64,000 bases of DNA from Oscillospiraceae bacterium (GTDB lineage: Bacteria > Bacillota > Clostridia > Oscillospirales > CAG-272): contig SVQY01000001.1 in the NCBI GenBank assembly GCA_015065135.1, positions 10,859 to 74,858 of the forward strand. Direction: 5' to 3'. The position numbers and the translations under genes were made by a program. Positions within the stretch are counted from its first letter, which is position 1, and every line of letters starts with the position of its first letter. Below are positions 5,524 to 54,404 of the stretch, in pieces. The notes under the pieces were generated by a model. It was not told where the DNA came from. It worked only from the letters and a program-made list of their open reading frames with translations, and did no database searches.

Positions 5524-6450
5524 ATGCTCGAGATCAGCGTGCAGACCGGCGGTCTGCAATATGACGATCGCAACGCCGATGAGGTGTTCGGCATGCTGGC
5601 AGCCGCCGGCTTTGAGGCAATGGATTTCAACATTGATCCCCACCTGCCCCCCAATGCCATTTCCAAGGGGCCGCTCACCGACTTTTTCGATCAGTCGGTA
5701 GAAAGCTTGATCGACTATTATCGCCCCGTAAAGGCAGCGGCGGAGAAGCACGGCATCGCTTTCGGGCAGATGCACGCCCCCTTTCCGCTTTGGGTGGAGG
5801 GCAAGCCGGAGGTCAATGACTATATGATCACGGTGGTGGATAAGTGCGCCGCCCTCTGTCAATTCTTAGGCTGCCCCCAGCTGGTGGTGCATCCCATCAC
5901 CCGCCCCACCAAGGAGGAGGAGTGGGAGGTCAACATGGCCATGTACCGCGCCATGATCCCTACGGGCAAGAAATACGGTGTGAAGCTCTGCCTGGAGAAC
6001 CTGCCTCACGGCGCACGCGGTCGCACCGTGGAGGGCGTCTGCTGCGATGCCGCCGAGGTCTGCCGCTATCTGGATACCCTCAACGCCGAGGCGGGGGAGG
6101 AGGTCTTCGGCTTTTGCTTTGACCTTGGCCACGCCAACATTCTGGGGCTGCGCATCCGCGATTATCTGAAGGGCATCGGACAACGCCTCACCTGTCTGCA
6201 CCTGCACGACAACAACGGCACCTCCGATTGGCACACCGCCCCCTACACCTGCATTGGCGGCGCTTACTACTCCACCGACTGGGAGGGGCTTTTGCAGGGG
6301 CTTGACGAGATAGGCTACCGCGGCACCCTCAATTTTGAGACCTTCCGCGCCACCAAGGGGCTGCCCCGCCGTCTGCAAAGGGAGATGCTCCACTACATTG
6401 CCGAGGTGGGCCGCTATTTCCGCGACCGCTTGCTCGGAAACGAGGTCTGA
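5524..6450 (+). CDS. Sugar phosphate isomerase/epimerase, xylose-isomerase-like TIM barrel (paralog 4 of 4)
   Basis: AAGGAGGAG RBS. Same motif set (VVHP, CLENL, DLGHAN, LHLHDN, FETF). Confidence 0.8.
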   Translation: MLEISVQTGGLQYDDRNADEVFGMLAAAGFEAMDFNIDPHLPPNAISKGPLTDFFDQSVESLIDYYRPVKAAAEKHGIAFGQMHAPFPLWVEGKPEVNDYMITVVDKCAALCQFLGCPQLVVHPITRPTKEEEWEVNMAMYRAMIPTGKKYGVKLCLENLPHGARGRTVEGVCCDAAEVCRYLDTLNAEAGEEVFGFCFDLGHANILGLRIRDYLKGIGQRLTCLHLHDNNGTSDWHTAPYTCIGGAYYSTDWEGLLQGLDEIGYRGTLNFETFRATKGLPRRLQREMLHYIAEVGRYFRDRLLGNEV

Positions 6451-38503: not shown

Positions 38504-40384
38504 TTACTCTTCTTCGTCATCGGCGGTCGTGTTATCGAGAGAGCCCTTGGGGGGCAGGTCGTCTTCATCGTCGATATGATGGAGCGAGCGATAAACGCGG
38601 CCGTCATCAGCAGCGGCCAGCGCTGCGTCGCTCTTGCCCTTGCTCTTGGCCTTCATTTCCTTTTCAGCGCGCTTGTAATCCTCCTCCGTAAAGGTGGGCA
38701 TCGGCATTGCCTTATGCAGAATGAACTGCTTGAGCATACCGATCAGGCACTTGAAGATCCAGTAGATACCGATAGCGGCGGGCGTGATGAAGGCGATATA
38801 CACACTCATCAGAGGCATGGTGATATCCATCATCTTGTTGGAGCAGCCCATCTGGGGATCCTGCTGGGCCGCAGGCTGATAGCTCAGCTTGCGAGTGACC
38901 TTCATGCTAAGGAAGTAAGCGACAAAGGTCAGGATCGGCACCAGGATCAAGGGCCAAAGCTGTGCGGTAGGCACAAAGCCGGTATTCATACCGAGGAATC
39001 TGAAGTTCGGCAGCAGCTCAACGTTCAGCGCATCGTGCACCTCAACGGCATTAGAGAAGTAGCTGAAGCTCTTCATAGCGCCCCAGTTACCGCTCTCCTG
39101 GATCTTGGTAAGCAGCTCGATGGTACCGCGCTTAGCGGCATCTGCGCCAAGGCCAAGACCGCCTGCGGCACGGGAGGTCTGTGCAAATCTTGCCAGATTT
39201 GCGGAGTAATCGGGACCCATACCCAGCATATAACGCAGGGGATCGATCACGATCTGATACAGGAAGATCACGATAGGCATCTGAATGAGCAAAGGCAGGC
39301 AGCCGCCCATAGGATTGAAGCCCTCATCCTGATACAGCTTCTGGATCTCCTGCTGCATCTTCTGCATCGAGGGCTGGTCGGTACGACCGGCGTACTTTTT
39401 GCGGATCGCTCTTTCCTTGGGAGAGAGCTTTGCCTGCTTGATCGAGTTCTTCTGCTGTCTGATGCCGAAGTAGATGAGCAGCAGCTCAACCAGTATGGCA
39501 AACCACAGCAGGCCGATCACATAATTATTAAAGGAAAGGTTCTTGGTCATCCAACCAAGGAACTTACCTACCCATACCAACAGGATCTGGGGGAAGCCGT
39601 CCTTGCCCATATTGGCGTTCTCACGCATAGTGCCGACGATCAGGCCGACCTGCTCGGCACTCAGAGCGTTCTTCCACTCATCAAAGCGCTCGGCATGCAT
39701 GGGATCGGTGGGGCGCAGACCCTCCAGTGCCTTTCTGGCAGCGGTCATATTTACTGCCAGCACGATACCGTCGCCGGAAAGGGCTACGGACACGGCCTCG
39801 CCGTTCTCCTTGTAATAGGTGAAGGTGGGGGTGTTATTACCGCTCTCGCTGGGGAGAGAGACGATATCGTTTGCGGTAACGTAAAGCTTGCTGGCGTTCA
39901 GGGCGTCCTTCTGGCCGCGTGCCGCATTGGCAAGTCGGTAGATGGTATTCTCTGCCCAGTTGGTCTCGGCAGCGATCTTGGCGCTCCACTGGTCATCCGG
40001 CAGGTTGACCCAGTAGATCACATCCAGCACCTGCTCGGGGGTAAGACCGGCGATCGCGGTCACCTCGGCAGGGGCACAAAGCACCAGCACGCCTCTGGCT
40101 GCGGTCATATCCACGGCCACGGCCTTGGTGGGATCCACCTCGGCATCGTTGAAGCCTTCCTTATATACGTTGTATCCGCGGAAGGCGGCAACGAAATTCT
40201 GCCGTGCGGTCTCATCCATTTTCAGAATGCGGGAGAAATACTTAACAGCATTTCCCTCATCCTCGTCTACCAGCTTGGTGTCGAGCGCAACAGAGCCGCC
40301 ACCGCAGGAGACCAGGCTGATCGTCAGAAGCAGAACAGCCAGCAAAAGAGCAAATGCTCTTTTGAAAATTTTCGTATTTTTCAT
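38504..40384 (-). CDS. yidC: YidC/Oxa1-family membrane insertase with a ~270-aa N-terminal extracytoplasmic extension
   Basis: Lipobox-like LVSCGG after the signal sequence. Core motifs QQKNSIKQAKLSPK, NPMGGCLPLLIQMPI and GIYW. The start was moved to ATG 40384 (MKNTKIF). Confidence 0.85.
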   Translation of the reverse strand: MKNTKIFKRAFALLLAVLLLTISLVSCGGGSVALDTKLVDEDEGNAVKYFSRILKMDETARQNFVAAFRGYNVYKEGFNDAEVDPTKAVAVDMTAARGVLVLCAPAEVTAIAGLTPEQVLDVIYWVNLPDDQWSAKIAAETNWAENTIYRLANAARGQKDALNASKLYVTANDIVSLPSESGNNTPTFTYYKENGEAVSVALSGDGIVLAVNMTAARKALEGLRPTDPMHAERFDEWKNALSAEQVGLIVGTMRENANMGKDGFPQILLVWVGKFLGWMTKNLSFNNYVIGLLWFAILVELLLIYFGIRQQKNSIKQAKLSPKERAIRKKYAGRTDQPSMQKMQQEIQKLYQDEGFNPMGGCLPLLIQMPIVIFLYQIVIDPLRYMLGMGPDYSANLARFAQTSRAAGGLGLGADAAKRGTIELLTKIQESGNWGAMKSFSYFSNAVEVHDALNVELLPNFRFLGMNTGFVPTAQLWPLILVPILTFVAYFLSMKVTRKLSYQPAAQQDPQMGCSNKMMDITMPLMSVYIAFITPAAIGIYWIFKCLIGMLKQFILHKAMPMPTFTEEDYKRAEKEMKAKSKGKSDAALAAADDGRVYRSLHHIDDEDDLPPKGSLDNTTADDEEE

Positions 40385-40428
40385 TGATACATTCCTTTCA
40401 ACGGTCATCAATGCAGGACTTAACGAAG

Positions 40429-40815
40429 TCAGTTTTCTTCGCTGTCCTTGGTGTAAGACGCTTCTTCGTTGCGGTGAGCAGCCTGCTCGCCGCCTTTGCC
40501 GTCGTCTTCCCGGCAAGGATCCGGCTGACTGTGACAGTCGCACAGATCTACGTTTTCATCGTCGATCGGTATCTCCCGAGAGCCCTTATAGCGCAAGCCT
40601 CGCTCCGGTACCGGGTCATAGCCGCCCACACAAAGGGGATTGCAGCGCAATATCCGCCAAACGGTCAGGACCAGTCCGACAAAAAAGCCTCGCTTTTGAA
40701 AGGCCTCCATCGCGTAAGCGGAGCAGCTGGGCACAAACCGACAGCAGGAGCCGCCCTTGTGGGGAGATATAAACCTTCTGTAAAATTTGATCAGTAGGAT
40801 ACAAAGATGCTTCAT
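40429..40815 (-). CDS. yidD: Membrane protein insertion efficiency factor YidD with a ~50-aa acidic/Cys-containing C-terminal extension
   Basis: Motifs [25 protein letters not shown] and RCNP. Its ATG overlaps the rnpA stop (ATGA). Only this part of track ORF 40429..41562 is credible. Confidence 0.8.
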
Positions 40816-41195
40816 ACCGTCTCCTGCGGGATCATTTCCAAGCGACGGAAGAGCCGCAGCATTTCTGCCGTGACATCCTGCGCCTTCTTTTCTCTGATCT
40901 CCTCTCTCGCCGCCAGGATCACCAAAAATCCCGACTTGACCCCCGCTGCCTTTACGGCGCGGTAGCCCTCGCGCAGCAGCCGCTTGGCGCGGTTGCGCTG
41001 CACGGCACCTCCGATCTTTTTGCCGACCGAAAGTCCCACACGATTGAGATATTGCTTTTGCGGATTGGCCTCGCGTAATCGCCGCGCGGCATAGTCGCGC
41101 AGCACGTATACCGCCACCAGCTTGCCCACAGCGCGCTGCCCCTTGGCAAACGCCTTGTTGTAAAGATGGTGTTCTTTGATCGCATACTCTTTCAT
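40812..41195 (-). CDS. rnpA: Ribonuclease P protein component
   Basis: Basic 127-aa protein with the RNR-like motif [18 protein letters not shown]. Conserved position between rpmH and yidD. Confidence 0.85.
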
Positions 41196-41340
41196 GAATC
41201 CTGTACCTTTTGCTTCCGTTTGTGTTGTTTTTTTCTTTTTTGTGCGAAAATTCCCGCAACGTGTCCGGGTTTTTGTGTTTTTGCTCACACCGCTTGTCCG
41301 GATCCGGGATCCGGCAGCACCGCAGCTCTTGCTTTTGCAT

Positions 41341-41750
41341 GCAGACGGGCGACGGCGTACTTAGCGTACGGCAAGCTCGGCTGAGGAGCAACAAAGCATC
41401 GCGCCGCTTCTCATCTCGGAAGAAAAGAGCAAGCGAGGCAAGGCGCACCGCAGCAGGCGGACGATGGCGTACTTGGAGTACGGCAAGCTCGGCTGCGAGG
41501 AGCAACAAAGCATCGCGCCGCTTCTCATCTCGGAAGAAAAGAGCAAGCGAGGCAAGGCGCACCGGAGCAGACGGGCGACGGCGTACTTAGCGTACGTCGA
41601 GTTCGGCTGCGAGGAGCAACGTAGCATCGCGCCGCTTCTCATCTCGGAAGAAAAGAGCAAGCGAGGCAAGGCGCACCGCAGCAGGCGGACGACGGCGTAC
41701 TTGCCGTACGTCGAGTTCGGCTGCGAGGAGCAACGTAGCATCGCGCCGCT
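41341..41750. repeat. Tandem direct repeat, about 3.6 copies of a 112-114-bp unit
   Basis: The anchor GGCGTAC recurs at 41354, 41466, 41580 and 41694. A 56-nt core (AGCATCGCGCCGCTTCTCATCTCGGAAGAAAAGAGCAAGCGAGGCAAGGCGCACCG) is identical in three copies. Confidence 0.9.
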
Positions 41751-41761
41751 ATTTTCTTTCG

Positions 41762-41798
41762 AGAAAAATGACCGATGAGCGGAACTGCATCATCGGTC
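41762..41798 (-). terminator. Intrinsic terminator directly after rpmH
   Basis: 9-bp stem GACCGATGA/TCATCGGTC followed by ATTTTTC on the minus strand. Confidence 0.7.
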
Positions 41799-41832
41799 AT
41801 CCTTCTATGTGAGCAAGTGAGACCGATTGAAA

Positions 41833-41967
41833 TTAGTAGGTCAGTCTCTTTCTGCCTTTTGCACGTCTTCTCTTAAGAACGTTTCTGCCGTCAGCAGTTC
41901 TCATTCTCTTTCTGAAACCGTGCTCCTTCTTTCTCTGACGCTTTTTGGGCTGATAAGTTCTGAGCAT
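41833..41967 (-). CDS. rpmH: 50S ribosomal protein L34
   Basis: Translated by hand because it falls below the track cutoff: [55 protein letters not shown]. Confidence 0.95.
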
Positions 41968-42046
41968 AGTGGCACCTCCTTGATATTTGGATTCGGAAGC
42001 GTATCGGACAGTGACCCAATGGACGCTTTTTACAGTGACATCGTTT

Positions 42047-42076
42047 ATTATACACGGATGCCCGGGTGTTTGTCAA
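42047..42076 (-). promoter_or_regulatory. Promoter of rpmH
   Basis: On the minus strand: TTGACA (42071-42076), 18 nt, TATAAT (42047-42052). Confidence 0.65.
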
Positions 42077-42176
42077 GAGTTTTTTTGATTTTAGGCAATT
42101 TTTTCTTATTTATATTAATAAAAAGATGAAAAAATGTTCGGTTTTGGGCAGTTTCACGCAAATCGGGTCTTTTTTC

Positions 42177-42488
42177 TCACGCAAAAGGGATCAGCTCTAC
42201 GAGAAAGACCGTGACGCAGGCAGCCAATGCCACCACGGGGAGCTTGCATCGAAGCAGCGAGAGCACCACCGCCACCAGCAGCGCAGCCAGCGCCGACCAG
42301 ATCACATTGGTGGCAAACAAAATGGCGGGAAAGGTCATTACCGCAAGCGTAACGTAGGGCACGTAGTAAAGGAAGGAGCGCACGAAGCGATTGGTGATCT
42401 CCCGACGGATCAGCACCAAGGGCAGCACACGGATGATGTAGGTGACCAATGCCATCAGCAAAATGGCGAAATAGATATTATTCACCAT
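42177..42488 (-). CDS. azlD: AzlD-family branched-chain amino acid transport protein
   Basis: 103-aa hydrophobic protein overlapping the upstream azlC-like gene. Confidence 0.75.
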   Translation of the reverse strand: MVNNIYFAILLMALVTYIIRVLPLVLIRREITNRFVRSFLYYVPYVTLAVMTFPAILFATNVIWSALAALLVAVVLSLLRCKLPVVALAACVTVFLVELIPFA

Positions 42489-43248
42489 TTTCGCTCACCT
42501 CCTCCTTCTCCTGTGTTTCCTTGACCGGGAACAGCAGCGCCGCTACCGCAGCGATCGCCACGGTGAGGAAGATGATCTGGAAGCCGTCGGTAAACCAGCT
42601 CCAGGAAAGCCCCTTGACCAGGTAATGCAGCCCTGCGCCGGCCGCCATCGAGATCACCACAACACCGGCGATCACACGGCTTTTGCGTGCAGGGGGCAGA
42701 ATAATGGCAAGAAACATGGCATACAATGCCACGCTGAGCGCGCTGACCGCTCTTGCCGGCAGGGCATTGCCCAGCAGCGCACCGAGCAGCGTGCCAAGTG
42801 TCCAGCCCGGCACCGCCACCGCAATGGCTCCGTAGCTGTAGGCAGGCCGCAGTCTGCCCTCTACCGCCATAGAAATACCAAAGATCTCATCCGTCACGCC
42901 GTAACCGATAAGGAAACGGTGCAGCATCGAGGTCTCGGGCGCGATCTTTTGCGAGAGCGAGCAGGACATCAGCAGATACCGCATATTGATAACCAGCTGG
43001 GTAAAGGCCAGCTCCACATAGGTGGTGCCGACGCCAAGCAGTGCAATGCCTGCCGCTTCACCCGCAGAGGTCACATTGAGAAAGGACATTAAGGCCGCCT
43101 GAAACGCAGTCATCTCCGCTCGCATGGCATTGATGCCGAGCGCAAAGGCTACAGCAAAATAGCCAAGTGCGATGGGAAGGCCGTCACGCATACCCCGTAA
43201 GAACCATCCGGCTCCTTCTTTTTTCACACGATCATCCCTTTTTAACAT
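42478..43248 (-). CDS. azlC: AzlC-family branched-chain amino acid permease component
   Basis: Multi-TM protein with GLPIALGYFAVAFALG near the N-terminus. The exact start is uncertain: ATG 43248, GTG 43227 or ATG 43191. Confidence 0.75.
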   Translation of the reverse strand: MLKRDDRVKKEGAGWFLRGMRDGLPIALGYFAVAFALGINAMRAEMTAFQAALMSFLNVTSAGEAAGIALLGVGTTYVELAFTQLVINMRYLLMSCSLSQKIAPETSMLHRFLIGYGVTDEIFGISMAVEGRLRPAYSYGAIAVAVPGWTLGTLLGALLGNALPARAVSALSVALYAMFLAIILPPARKSRVIAGVVVISMAAGAGLHYLVKGLSWSWFTDGFQIIFLTVAIAAVAALLFPVKETQEKEEVSENGE

Positions 43249-51004: not shown

Positions 51005-51340
51005 GTTTTCCTCCTTTTGTTATGACCCCGAACTCCCTCCAAGGTCACAACGACTTTATATGAAATTTTGAGGGACTACTTCAGCGCCGATGCTGTCATA
51101 ACCGCGCAGTCTGAAAGGTATCTATCAATATTGTAGCACCGCTGCCTGCAGATTGCAATATTTTTGCGCAAAAAAATTAAGAGAAATCCGTTTTTCTGCT
51201 TGGATGGTGAGAACCTCTCGCACAAGCATTTGCCCTTTAAACGCCTTGGCCGCTTACGAGCAAGCTCGACGCGCTTGATCGGCGTTTGTCGCACCCATGT
51301 GTGTGCTGCGCACACACCGTGTCGCTTGCGGCACAGGCCG

Positions 51341-53147: not shown

Positions 53148-54404
53148 TTATGGCTTTTGCTTGCCGCCATTCTGACGCACGTGCTCAGCATAAAGCTTTG
53201 CCGCCTGCTCGGTTTTGTTTTCTCCGTATTCATAATATTTCCGATCGCGCAGATCACTTGGCAGATATTGCTGCCGCACGTAGTGACAGGTGTAGTCGTG
53301 CGGATATTTATATCCTTGAAACAGCGGGGATTGCAGATGCCGCGGTACCTCGTTGCCGCGGCCGGCATCCACATCCTCCATCGCTGCTGCCAGCGCCAGA
53401 TACGCCGTGTTGGATTTGGGCGCGGTGGCCAGCATAAGGGCAGCATTGATAAGCGGAATGCGTGCCTCGGGGAAGCCCAGCTCCATTGCCGATTCGCAGC
53501 AGGAGCGCACAACGGTGGCTGCCTGCGGATAGGCCAGGCCAACATCCTCCGAGGCGATCACCTGCAGTCTGCGGCAAAGCGAGATCAGCTCGCCTGCTGC
53601 CACCAGCTTTGCTACATAAAAGGCGGTCGCATCCGGATCCGAGCCCCGGATCGACTTTTGCAGGCAGGAAAGCAGATCGTAGTGCGTGTCGTCATTGAAA
53701 TTGCCTACACGCACGTAAAAATCATCCACATTTTCCTTAGAAATCCATACCGTTTCCTGATTTTCGTTACCGCTAGCCGCAAAATAGGCGTTCTCCAAAA
53801 GGCCGATGCCGCGGCGCACATCGCCCCGGACACCGTTGGCAATATGAGAAAGAACGGCCTCCTCGGCCTGCACGCTTGTGCCGTGCTCGGCATTGAGATG
53901 TGCCAGGGCGCGCGCCAGAGCGGGCACCATTTCGGCAGGCTTCACCGGTCGGAACTCAAACAACGAGGAACGGGAAATGATCGCGTTATAAATGTAAAAA
54001 TGAGGATTTTCGGTAGTGGAGGCGATCAGCGTAACACGCCCATCCTCCATGTACTCCAGCAGGGATTGCTGCTGCTTGCGATTGAAATACTGGATCTCGT
54101 CCAGATACAGCAGGATGCCGCCGGCGCCGAACACATTGGCAGTCTCGGCCAACACCTCTTTGACGTCAGAGAGGCTGGCAGAGGTACAGTTCAAACGGCG
54201 AAAGACCATCCCGGACTGCTTGGCAATAATAGCCGCAGCGGTGGTCTTGCCCGTGCCGGGAGGGCCAAAAAAGATCATATTGGTGATACGGCCGCTCTCG
54301 ACCATACGGCGCACGACACCGCGGGGGCCAAAGAGGTGGCTCTGCCCCACGATGGTGTCAAAGCTATCCGGTCGCAGGATATCGGCTAATTGCTCGTTTC
54401 TCAT
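53148..54404 (-). CDS. rarA: Replication-associated recombination protein A (AAA+ ATPase)
   Basis: Walker A GPPGTGKTT, Walker B LYLDEI, C-terminal MgsA domain (YKYPHDY). Confidence 0.9.
   Translation of the reverse strand: MRNEQLADILRPDSFDTIVGQSHLFGPRGVVRRMVESGRITNMIFFGPPGTGKTTAAAIIAKQSGMVFRRLNCTSASLSDVKEVLAETANVFGAGGILLYLDEIQYFNRKQQQSLLEYMEDGRVTLIASTTENPHFYIYNAIISRSSLFEFRPVKPAEMVPALARALAHLNAEHGTSVQAEEAVLSHIANGVRGDVRRGIGLLENAYFAASGNENQETVWISKENVDDFYVRVGNFNDDTHYDLLSCLQKSIRGSDPDATAFYVAKLVAAGELISLCRRLQVIASEDVGLAYPQAATVVRSCCESAMELGFPEARIPLINAALMLATAPKSNTAYLALAAAMEDVDAGRGNEVPRHLQSPLFQGYKYPHDYTCHYVRQQYLPSDLRDRKYYEYGENKTEQAAKLYAEHVRQNGGKQKP

Follow-up and report, generated by a model that had tools for sequence, protein, structure and literature searches.

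A tandem array between rpmH and rnpA is composed of copies of a genus-wide structured repeat

In the Oscillospiraceae genome studied here, the genes for ribosomal protein L34 (rpmH) and the RNase P protein (rnpA) are separated by a tandem array of 114-bp units. What is this array, and does it serve the gene that it precedes? The stretch under analysis, called the window below, comprises 64,000 nucleotides of a genome (G000) assembled in 88 contigs (2.37 Mb, 55.6% G+C). A first-pass annotation, made from the letters alone, had proposed a structured RNA or processing array feeding rnpA expression, an origin-linked protein-binding array, or a variable-number tandem repeat (VNTR). We find that the array consists of three complete copies and one 5'-truncated copy of a genus-wide structured repeat, here termed the rod, and that it is not built for rnpA. 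Based upon the evidence below, it probably represents the tandem amplification, at an old site, of a dispersed hairpin element that is under selection. The features of the locus, in window coordinates, are as follows.

40812–41195, minus strand: rnpA, RNase P protein, 127 aa (Pfam PF00825, E = 6.3e-19)
41196–41306, minus strand: unique spacer preceding rnpA (promoter scan and fold)
41307–41423, plus strand: 5'-truncated rod copy at the rnpA-proximal edge of the array (covariance model R1, 39 bits; alignment)
41341–41750, no strand assigned: tandem array, period 114, 3.6 copies (Tandem Repeats Finder)
41418–41537, plus strand: rod copy 3, complete (R1, 117.2 bits; G000:C86:52276–52395)
41532–41651, plus strand: rod copy 2, complete (R1, 123.8 bits)
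41646–41765, plus strand: rod copy 1, complete, nearest to rpmH (R1, 118.8 bits; G000:C86:52504–52623)
41764–41800, minus strand: rpmH intrinsic terminator, 11-bp stem, 11-nt loop and T run (fold)
41833–41967, minus strand: rpmH, ribosomal protein L34, 44 aa (Pfam PF00468, E = 3.5e-22)
42047–42076, minus strand: rpmH promoter, perfect TTGACA-18-TATAAT (sigma-70 scan)

Pfam supports all four minus-strand genes of the window, namely rpmH, rnpA, yidD and yidC. Between 40700 and 42300 the rpmH promoter is the sole consensus sigma-70-type site, and an automated terminator scan of the same interval made zero calls. The good intrinsic terminator that had been noticed behind rpmH is confirmed by its folding energy of -27.1 kcal/mol (z = -6.7); it is kept in all 30 species of the genus compared, with the rod present or absent, and is not peculiar to the window's genome. 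The spacer at 41196–41306 contains neither a consensus promoter nor a significant fold. Some 60–90 nt upstream of rnpA, in this spacer and in homologous gaps (L219–L235), lies a short motif, TATGTGA or GGTGTGAGCAAAAA, which by eye is repeated in many insert-carrying species; it fails the sigma-70 consensus scan and might belong to an rnpA promoter. Along the plus strand of contig G000:C86 the GC skew stays positive over the first 10 kb, flips sign just left of window position 1, and from 10 kb as far as 116 kb is negative; a plus strand that is G-rich to the left of the flip suits a terminus or a rearrangement better than an origin.

Tandem Repeats Finder reported the array with 92% matches and a score of 666 as the only long-period array of the window. 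What the first-pass annotation had described at the level of sequence was borne out: 3.6 copies of a 114-bp unit between the rpmH terminator and rnpA, unit lengths of 112/114/114 (to which we add a partial one of 70 nt), a run of 56 nt that three copies share unchanged, the loop variants ttagc/ttgga/ttagc/ttgcc, a two-state block reading GGCAAGCTCGG or GTCGAGTTCGG, and a distance of 145 nt from the array to the rnpA ATG. The small hairpin that it had singled out is the mere tip of a rod of 120–145 nt. The 3' end of rod copy 1 touches the T run of the rpmH terminator, and its folding strand is the window plus strand; the 5'-truncated copy retains the apical hairpin and 3' arm only. The units adjoin directly, and a CRISPR array was rejected since they lack unique spacers. 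An Rfam 15 cmscan of 40000–43000 on both strands, with E up to 10, returned three chance-level matches, all off the array.

The unit is not confined to this site. Blastn and nhmmer searches of its own genome revealed relatives, in part tandem, on about ten further contigs. When 11 copies were aligned, they displayed conserved blocks, an apical stem of 5–7 bp and more helices below that stem, and the covariance model R1 was built from this alignment. In the window's genome R1 detected 23 copies at 13 loci. The copies are spread over many contigs, which argues against the suggested origin-linked protein-binding array, and R1 gave no match at 51247–51270, where a partial similarity to the unit had been pointed out. 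Within the genus, which comprises uncultured gut Clostridia, 38 of 40 species carry 1–29 full-length copies each, scoring 90–125 bits, and adjacent pairs are frequent. Beyond the genus the distribution is patchy: of the genomes sampled, 9 of 301 in the order and 9 of 400 in the class have matches, those in the class being weak (40–53 bits), and none was found among 16 from the family's other genera. The top class-level matches shown represent a shorter version that retains CAAGGCG, GGGCGAAGGC-hairpin-GUCAAG and CAACGCAG. The viral contigs, plasmids and phages searched yielded no rod match. A pattern scan (TCGAG-N(8-10)-CGAGGAGCAAC) over genome contigs and viral contigs was too loose, most of its 120 genome matches being chance; covariance re-scoring retained 5 loci in 4 records, and no viral contig passed. 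The retained records are three "Clostridia bacterium RGIG" MAGs and one "Selenomonadales" MAG, and three of the four named outside records come from ruminant guts (goat colon, water deer cecum and roe deer cecum). Stem-loop repeat families are common among bacterial genomes (PMC2267715).

Each copy is an imperfect hairpin of about 120–145 nt, and whole copies with their flanks fold as a single continuous rod of 120–175 nt. In alignments that were fitted to the model, and are hence biased toward structure, standard pairs fill 95.5% of cells among 58 distinct copies and 94.0% among 83, as against 77% in column shuffles and 24–45% with slid partners; 22 of the 26 pairs are changed on both sides in the smaller set and 24 of 26 in the larger, and none of 500 shuffles matched any measure of pairing or covariation. 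The apical stem occurs as CGTAC/GTACG, CGTAG/CTACG, CGATG/CATCG, CGAAC/GTTCG and others. The outer stems are unrelated in sequence between copies, yet their pairing is always kept. Since the inner helices are of a few discrete types, each found repeatedly and at different sites, part of the covariation reflects the swapping of modules and not independent compensatory mutations. Among orthologous copies, compensatory changes affect 11 of 26 pairs at the purC site and 16 of 26 at the rpmH site. The earlier impression of a maintained structure, as opposed to neutral decay, is upheld by this very strong covariation.

The internal loops of the rod are purine-rich and conserved: CAAGGCG; ACCGGAG facing CGAGGAGCAAC; and CGA-N-GG facing UCGAG. 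To the eye, each of the two conserved internal loops could be a tandem G.A/A.G motif with one bulged base; canonical K-turns were rejected, also by eye, the bulge being 1 nt instead of 3. In about half of the copies (subtype 1) the base of the rod carries AAAAA...TTTTT. The units of the window belong to subtype 2, which has no T run, and they should therefore be poor terminators in both directions. In the 5' flanks of two rods (G000:C56 at about 6190–6320 and G000:C48 at about 53335–53460) a C-rich run is followed by a small hairpin (ccccaccccctcgcaatctttttgaaaaaagattg, ccccctcccccccaccaccttttgaaaaaggtgg), which may belong to another repeat family or type of terminator.

The position of rods with respect to genes follows rules. 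By gene calls from our own codon-usage scorer, which was trained on the window's genome, missed rpmH and mis-called one site, the gene on the 3' side lies on the strand opposite to the rod at 43 of 46 sites in one set and 55 of 61 in another. A random orientation, as obtained from the longest ORFs, was rejected as a shadow-ORF artefact after the codon-usage scorer reversed the outcome. The stop codon of the 3'-side gene usually falls between -15 and +1 nt from the model end, that is, 0–16 nt from the conserved basal helix. The partners are housekeeping genes (rpsT, purC, argJ, argF, gdhA, ftsZ, metG, glgD, yebC, rny, mutL, purN and a carB-like gene), often within operons such as argJ-argB, purC-purM and glgD-glgA. 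The first-pass annotation had foreseen that its reading would fail if the unit were a common dispersed repeat with no positional preference; the dispersal is real, but the preferences for position and orientation are strong.

The close spacing from stop codons, the fixed orientation to the gene and the housekeeping partners inside operons would all suit a REP-type mRNA element, one that works in the 3' UTR through protection from 3' exonucleases, attenuation of read-through or stalling of ribosomes. REPs located at most 15 nt from a stop codon have been reported to stall ribosomes and to reduce translation (PMC12306157), and the mRNA-sense strand of the rods is still stable, with a mean folding energy of -51.7 kcal/mol. 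We nevertheless regard this alternative, the one that survives best, as unlikely, because the other strand pairs better. For 44 copies the mean on that folding strand is -59.0 kcal/mol, and it is the more stable of the two in 37 (p = 4e-7). One clean copy reaches -50 kcal/mol (z = -3.8) on the window plus strand; on the other strand it reaches -38.7 (z = -1.2) and the rod is lost. On the folding strand G.U exceeds A.C by 144 to 19 (each A.C being a G.U on the other strand), and by 59 to 19 (p = 6e-6) when two G.U-dominated pairs are left out. By eye, the mRNA would have pyrimidine mismatches in place of the purine-rich loops.

Relative to the adjacent gene the better-pairing strand is antisense, and it is the lagging-type (C-rich) strand. 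The latter follows from the 20-kb flanks, where at 58 of 61 sites the folding strand has a negative GC skew. Deamination on the leading strand (C-to-T) should yield G.T on the opposite strand, so that the observed asymmetry would run against the mutation bias, a further point against an mRNA element. The gene rule is itself correlated with the skew rule. Where they conflict, five independent loci obey the skew and not the neighbouring gene (e.g., G000 C86:108402–108521, between fumC and the next gene), and one locus, rpsT in three species, obeys the gene. In addition, a canonical terminator stands between gene and rod at rpmH and rpsT. Upstream of the rods, sigma-70-like sites on the folding strand were found at 19 of 59 sites, with 23.8 expected from shuffles and no fixed distance; on this weak test, an independent small-RNA gene with its own promoter was rejected.

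Which molecule folds? Asymmetric pairing, purine-rich loops and skew-following loci all point to the strand that is not mRNA. It is possible that the folding molecule is an antisense RNA that halts antisense or head-on transcription in a polar manner; at gene ends such a stop would need no promoter of its own. That it is single-stranded DNA of the leading-strand template is conceivable, if somewhat doubtful, and that it is the mRNA itself, as in REPs near stop codons, seems unlikely. The balance falls to none of these, or to a rod without function. The coupling to stop codons favours action in mRNA and the pairing asymmetry favours the other strand; no single model fits both. Perhaps, and we put this forward tentatively, the rods are a new strand-specific class that folds only antisense to an upstream housekeeping gene and acts either as a polar barrier, at gene ends, to antisense transcription that runs head-on to replication, or as a recognition site in single-stranded DNA of the leading-strand template. 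Such a class would use the lagging-type strand, possibly with two tandem G.A motifs, and tandem arrays would tune its strength. On our reading of the family, the rod would function as a single-stranded hairpin at gene ends that is read by a host factor.

How the family came to be dispersed bears upon a second alternative, that of a MITE or REPIN, a selfish mobile element that is non-autonomous, owes its spread to a transposase and has no host function, the array having formed by repeated insertion. The sites at purC, mutL, rny, argJ, yebC, gdhA and metG are each common to 2–6 species. In 19 cases a copy has an orthologue as its nearest relative and in 17 a paralogue from the same genome, a split that fits neither vertical descent alone nor recent copying alone and that we read as gene conversion. 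We thus read the history of the family as probable vertical descent with gene conversion; conversion would have kept it homogeneous, and no transposase would have spread it. The multi-copy state, ends that resemble terminal inverted repeats, the patchy occurrence in the order and class, and paralogues that are in some cases 96–99% identical are features that a selfish element could share. Its many orthologous sites speak against one, as do outer "inverted repeats" that differ wholly between copies, the head-to-tail units with truncation points inside the unit, and the lack of copies in plasmids, phages and viral contigs. The Y1 transposase (PF01797) occurs in 10 of the 40 genus genomes, is absent from 29 of the 38 that bear the repeat and is present in the repeat-free G021, so there is no association. 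A selfish origin is for these reasons improbable. Judged as a MITE, the rod has no parent element that we could find, its outer stems pair but vary, and the orthologous sites oppose recent mobility. A REP/REPIN-RAYT system was rejected as well, given the lack of a Y1 link and a unit that is one rod of 120–145 nt in head-to-tail arrays, where REPs are palindromes of 20–40 nt that usually form inverted pairs. The sole inverted pair of rods seen (L284, G015:C141, 1227–1346 on the minus and 1387–1507 on the plus strand) has its members 40 nt apart with their 5' ends facing; all other neighbouring rods are head-to-tail or in the same orientation.

Rod arrays occur elsewhere in the window's genome. 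Behind rpsT there is one of 5.4 copies of 95 bp (G000:C50:2924–3423) and behind ftsZ one of 2.6 copies of 118 bp (G000:C65:24066–24388), each with its own break point; the differing periods and break points indicate that array formation recurs in the family. About ten other long-period intergenic tandem arrays are present in this genome, several very strongly structured. Five such arrays outside the window (G000 C5:15589–16275, C27:7936–8393, C43:42335–43030, C48:24856–25346 and C56:29357–29894) are unrelated to the rod in sequence, with 2.5–4.1 copies of 157–215 bp and 89–97% matches. Their units fold as multi-hairpin modules, and two are extremely stable, with -95.8 kcal/mol for C5 (z about -9) and -95.5 kcal/mol for C27 (z about -8.5). 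This lineage thus seems prone to the tandem growth of structured spacers. A CRISPR-like array, also outside the window (G000:C43:53139–53892), has a period of about 66 and at least 10 copies of the 36-nt repeat GTTATTTCATACCAAGAACTACCAGGGAGCTACAAC.

At rpmH itself, the comparison of 30 species shows how the site has been filled. In 17 the rpmH-rnpA gap is empty and measures 117–148 nt; the remaining gaps span 282–637 nt, save one of 218 nt (L226). At least 10 species have 1–4 rod copies or remnants in the gap, right behind the conserved terminator and always in the same orientation. The RnpA proteins of these species are 72–92% identical to that of the window, and the confinement of gap copies to such relatives fits one old insertion followed by decay or tandem growth according to line. 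Lines with tandem growth are the window's genome, G005, G006 and G014. Filled and empty sites are too divergent for any target-site duplication to be read. Within the 621-nt gap of G014 (L229), at locus positions of about 1873–2496, short sub-repeats (GCGCCTTGCTCCTCTGCCGATTTCCGGCGAGGACAGATC) form a secondary array and seem to descend from one arm of the rod. The 418-nt gap of G016 (L222) has an insert unrelated to the rod and without a model match; it holds other hairpin repeats, of the GTCATTCTGAGCGGAGC type, and the site therefore appears open to different structured inserts.

Metagenome contigs encoding an identical RnpA fall into two classes. The first is the same as the window, with 3.6 copies (a JGI contig; 16 more places are listed as similar), and the second is exactly 228 bp shorter, with 1.6 copies (an ENA contig; 3 more places listed as similar). 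Another strain carries a variant unit, also in 1.6 copies; one other contig breaks within the array. The VNTR proposed at the outset is thereby found: same-species assemblies contain 1.6 or 3.6 copies, a difference of exactly 2 x 114 bp, as read from short-read metagenome assemblies in which repeats can collapse. On the reading that we prefer, a single rod behind rpmH would have been amplified head-to-tail in the window's lineage, by slippage or unequal recombination, and this would have produced the polymorphism in copy number.

A cis-regulatory or processing RNA array dedicated to rnpA, supplying for example substrates for RNase P or RNase III, would also account for a site that is kept in at least 10 species and varies in copy number. 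The consensus scan revealed no separate promoter for rnpA, which is thus probably reliant on read-through crossing the array. However, the same element stands behind many unrelated genes (purC, argJ, argF, gdhA, ftsZ, metG, rpsT, glgD and others), rnpA is intact in the 17 species of 30 whose gap is empty, and the strand that would have to fold within the rnpA transcript is the poorer one, on which the rod is not kept; the better-folding strand is antisense to both rpmH and rnpA. We therefore consider a dedicated array, which heads the candidate roles of the first-pass annotation, very unlikely. With a canonical terminator upstream and units that have no T run, the local effect upon rnpA is probably limited to a longer, structured read-through leader, and most transcripts should already end at the rpmH terminator, before the array. 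Least credible of all are a repeat-containing small protein and an assembly artefact: the 114-bp period does leave several frames open, as had been noted (ORFs of 126, 126 and 104 aa), but the two array ORFs scanned (41361–41741 minus and 41464–41778 plus) have no Pfam match, substitutions track base pairing and not codons, the other periods of the family (95 and about 113–124 bp) are not multiples of three and so do not suit the proposed Met-initiated peptide repeat, and the identical array in the independent JGI assembly shows that ours is no artefact.

For the locus this outcome is deflating, in that the array reveals no new control of RNase P protein synthesis. Its interest lies in the family, retained at orthologous positions behind core genes throughout the genus and with an asymmetry that favours the non-mRNA strand. 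If confirmed, the rods would offer a tractable case for deciding whether bacterial interspersed repeats act as RNA or as single-stranded DNA, and would bear on how highly used genes are insulated from antisense or head-on transcription. The arrays are, moreover, natural strain markers (VNTRs) for these uncultured organisms.

Among known systems, integron attC sites, such as the Vibrio cholerae repeats, lie directly 3' of an ORF, measure 57–141 nt and have a folding strand that is antisense; in chromosomal integrons this strand has been placed on the leading-strand template. The rods resemble them in location, antisense folding strand, co-varying stems and size. Unlike attC, they have (by eye) no RYYYAAC/GTTRRRY core sites at their ends and form no cassette array, they accompany core housekeeping genes at orthologous positions, and their internal sequence is highly conserved. 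Identity with attC was rejected on the absence of the core sites in the alignments and on the occurrence of single or tandem copies behind core genes on many contigs. The BOX elements of Streptococcus pneumoniae are modular, A-B(n)-C, with a strain-variable number of the internal unit, and the MIRU-VNTR loci of mycobacteria are units of 40–100 bp in operon spacers, with small overlapping ORFs, that serve as VNTR markers. Both share with the rods a modular repeat of strain-variable copy number, but in the rods the whole element is repeated and coding is unsupported.

ERIC (IRU), Correia and the Bacillus cereus bcr1 elements are imperfect palindromes of about 100–155 bp in intergenic transcribed regions, for which long RNA hairpins are predicted and compensatory changes reported. 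In all of these respects the rods are similar. The known elements are found either way round and end in constant inverted repeats, whereas the outer stems of the rods vary, their orientation is about 90–95% fixed and their sites are orthologous across the genus; there is no relation in sequence (no Rfam match). REP/BIME elements of enterobacteria and pseudomonads, REPINs included, are likewise intergenic, hairpin-forming, multi-copy and clustered, and often lie directly behind stop codons within operons. They are thought to affect mRNA stability, translation termination or DNA topology (PMC12306157, PMC2817692). REPs are palindromes of 20–40 nt in alternating orientation, tied to RAYT (Y1) transposases; rods are 120–145 nt long and head-to-tail, with a strict orientation and a clear asymmetry of pairing between strands. 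The rod is a new repeat family with unusual rules, without a match in Rfam and with a well-supported structure. By analogy, its closest counterparts would be REP/BIME, ERIC and BOX, and we infer that it belongs with elements of the REP/BIME or ERIC kind and is maintained by the host.
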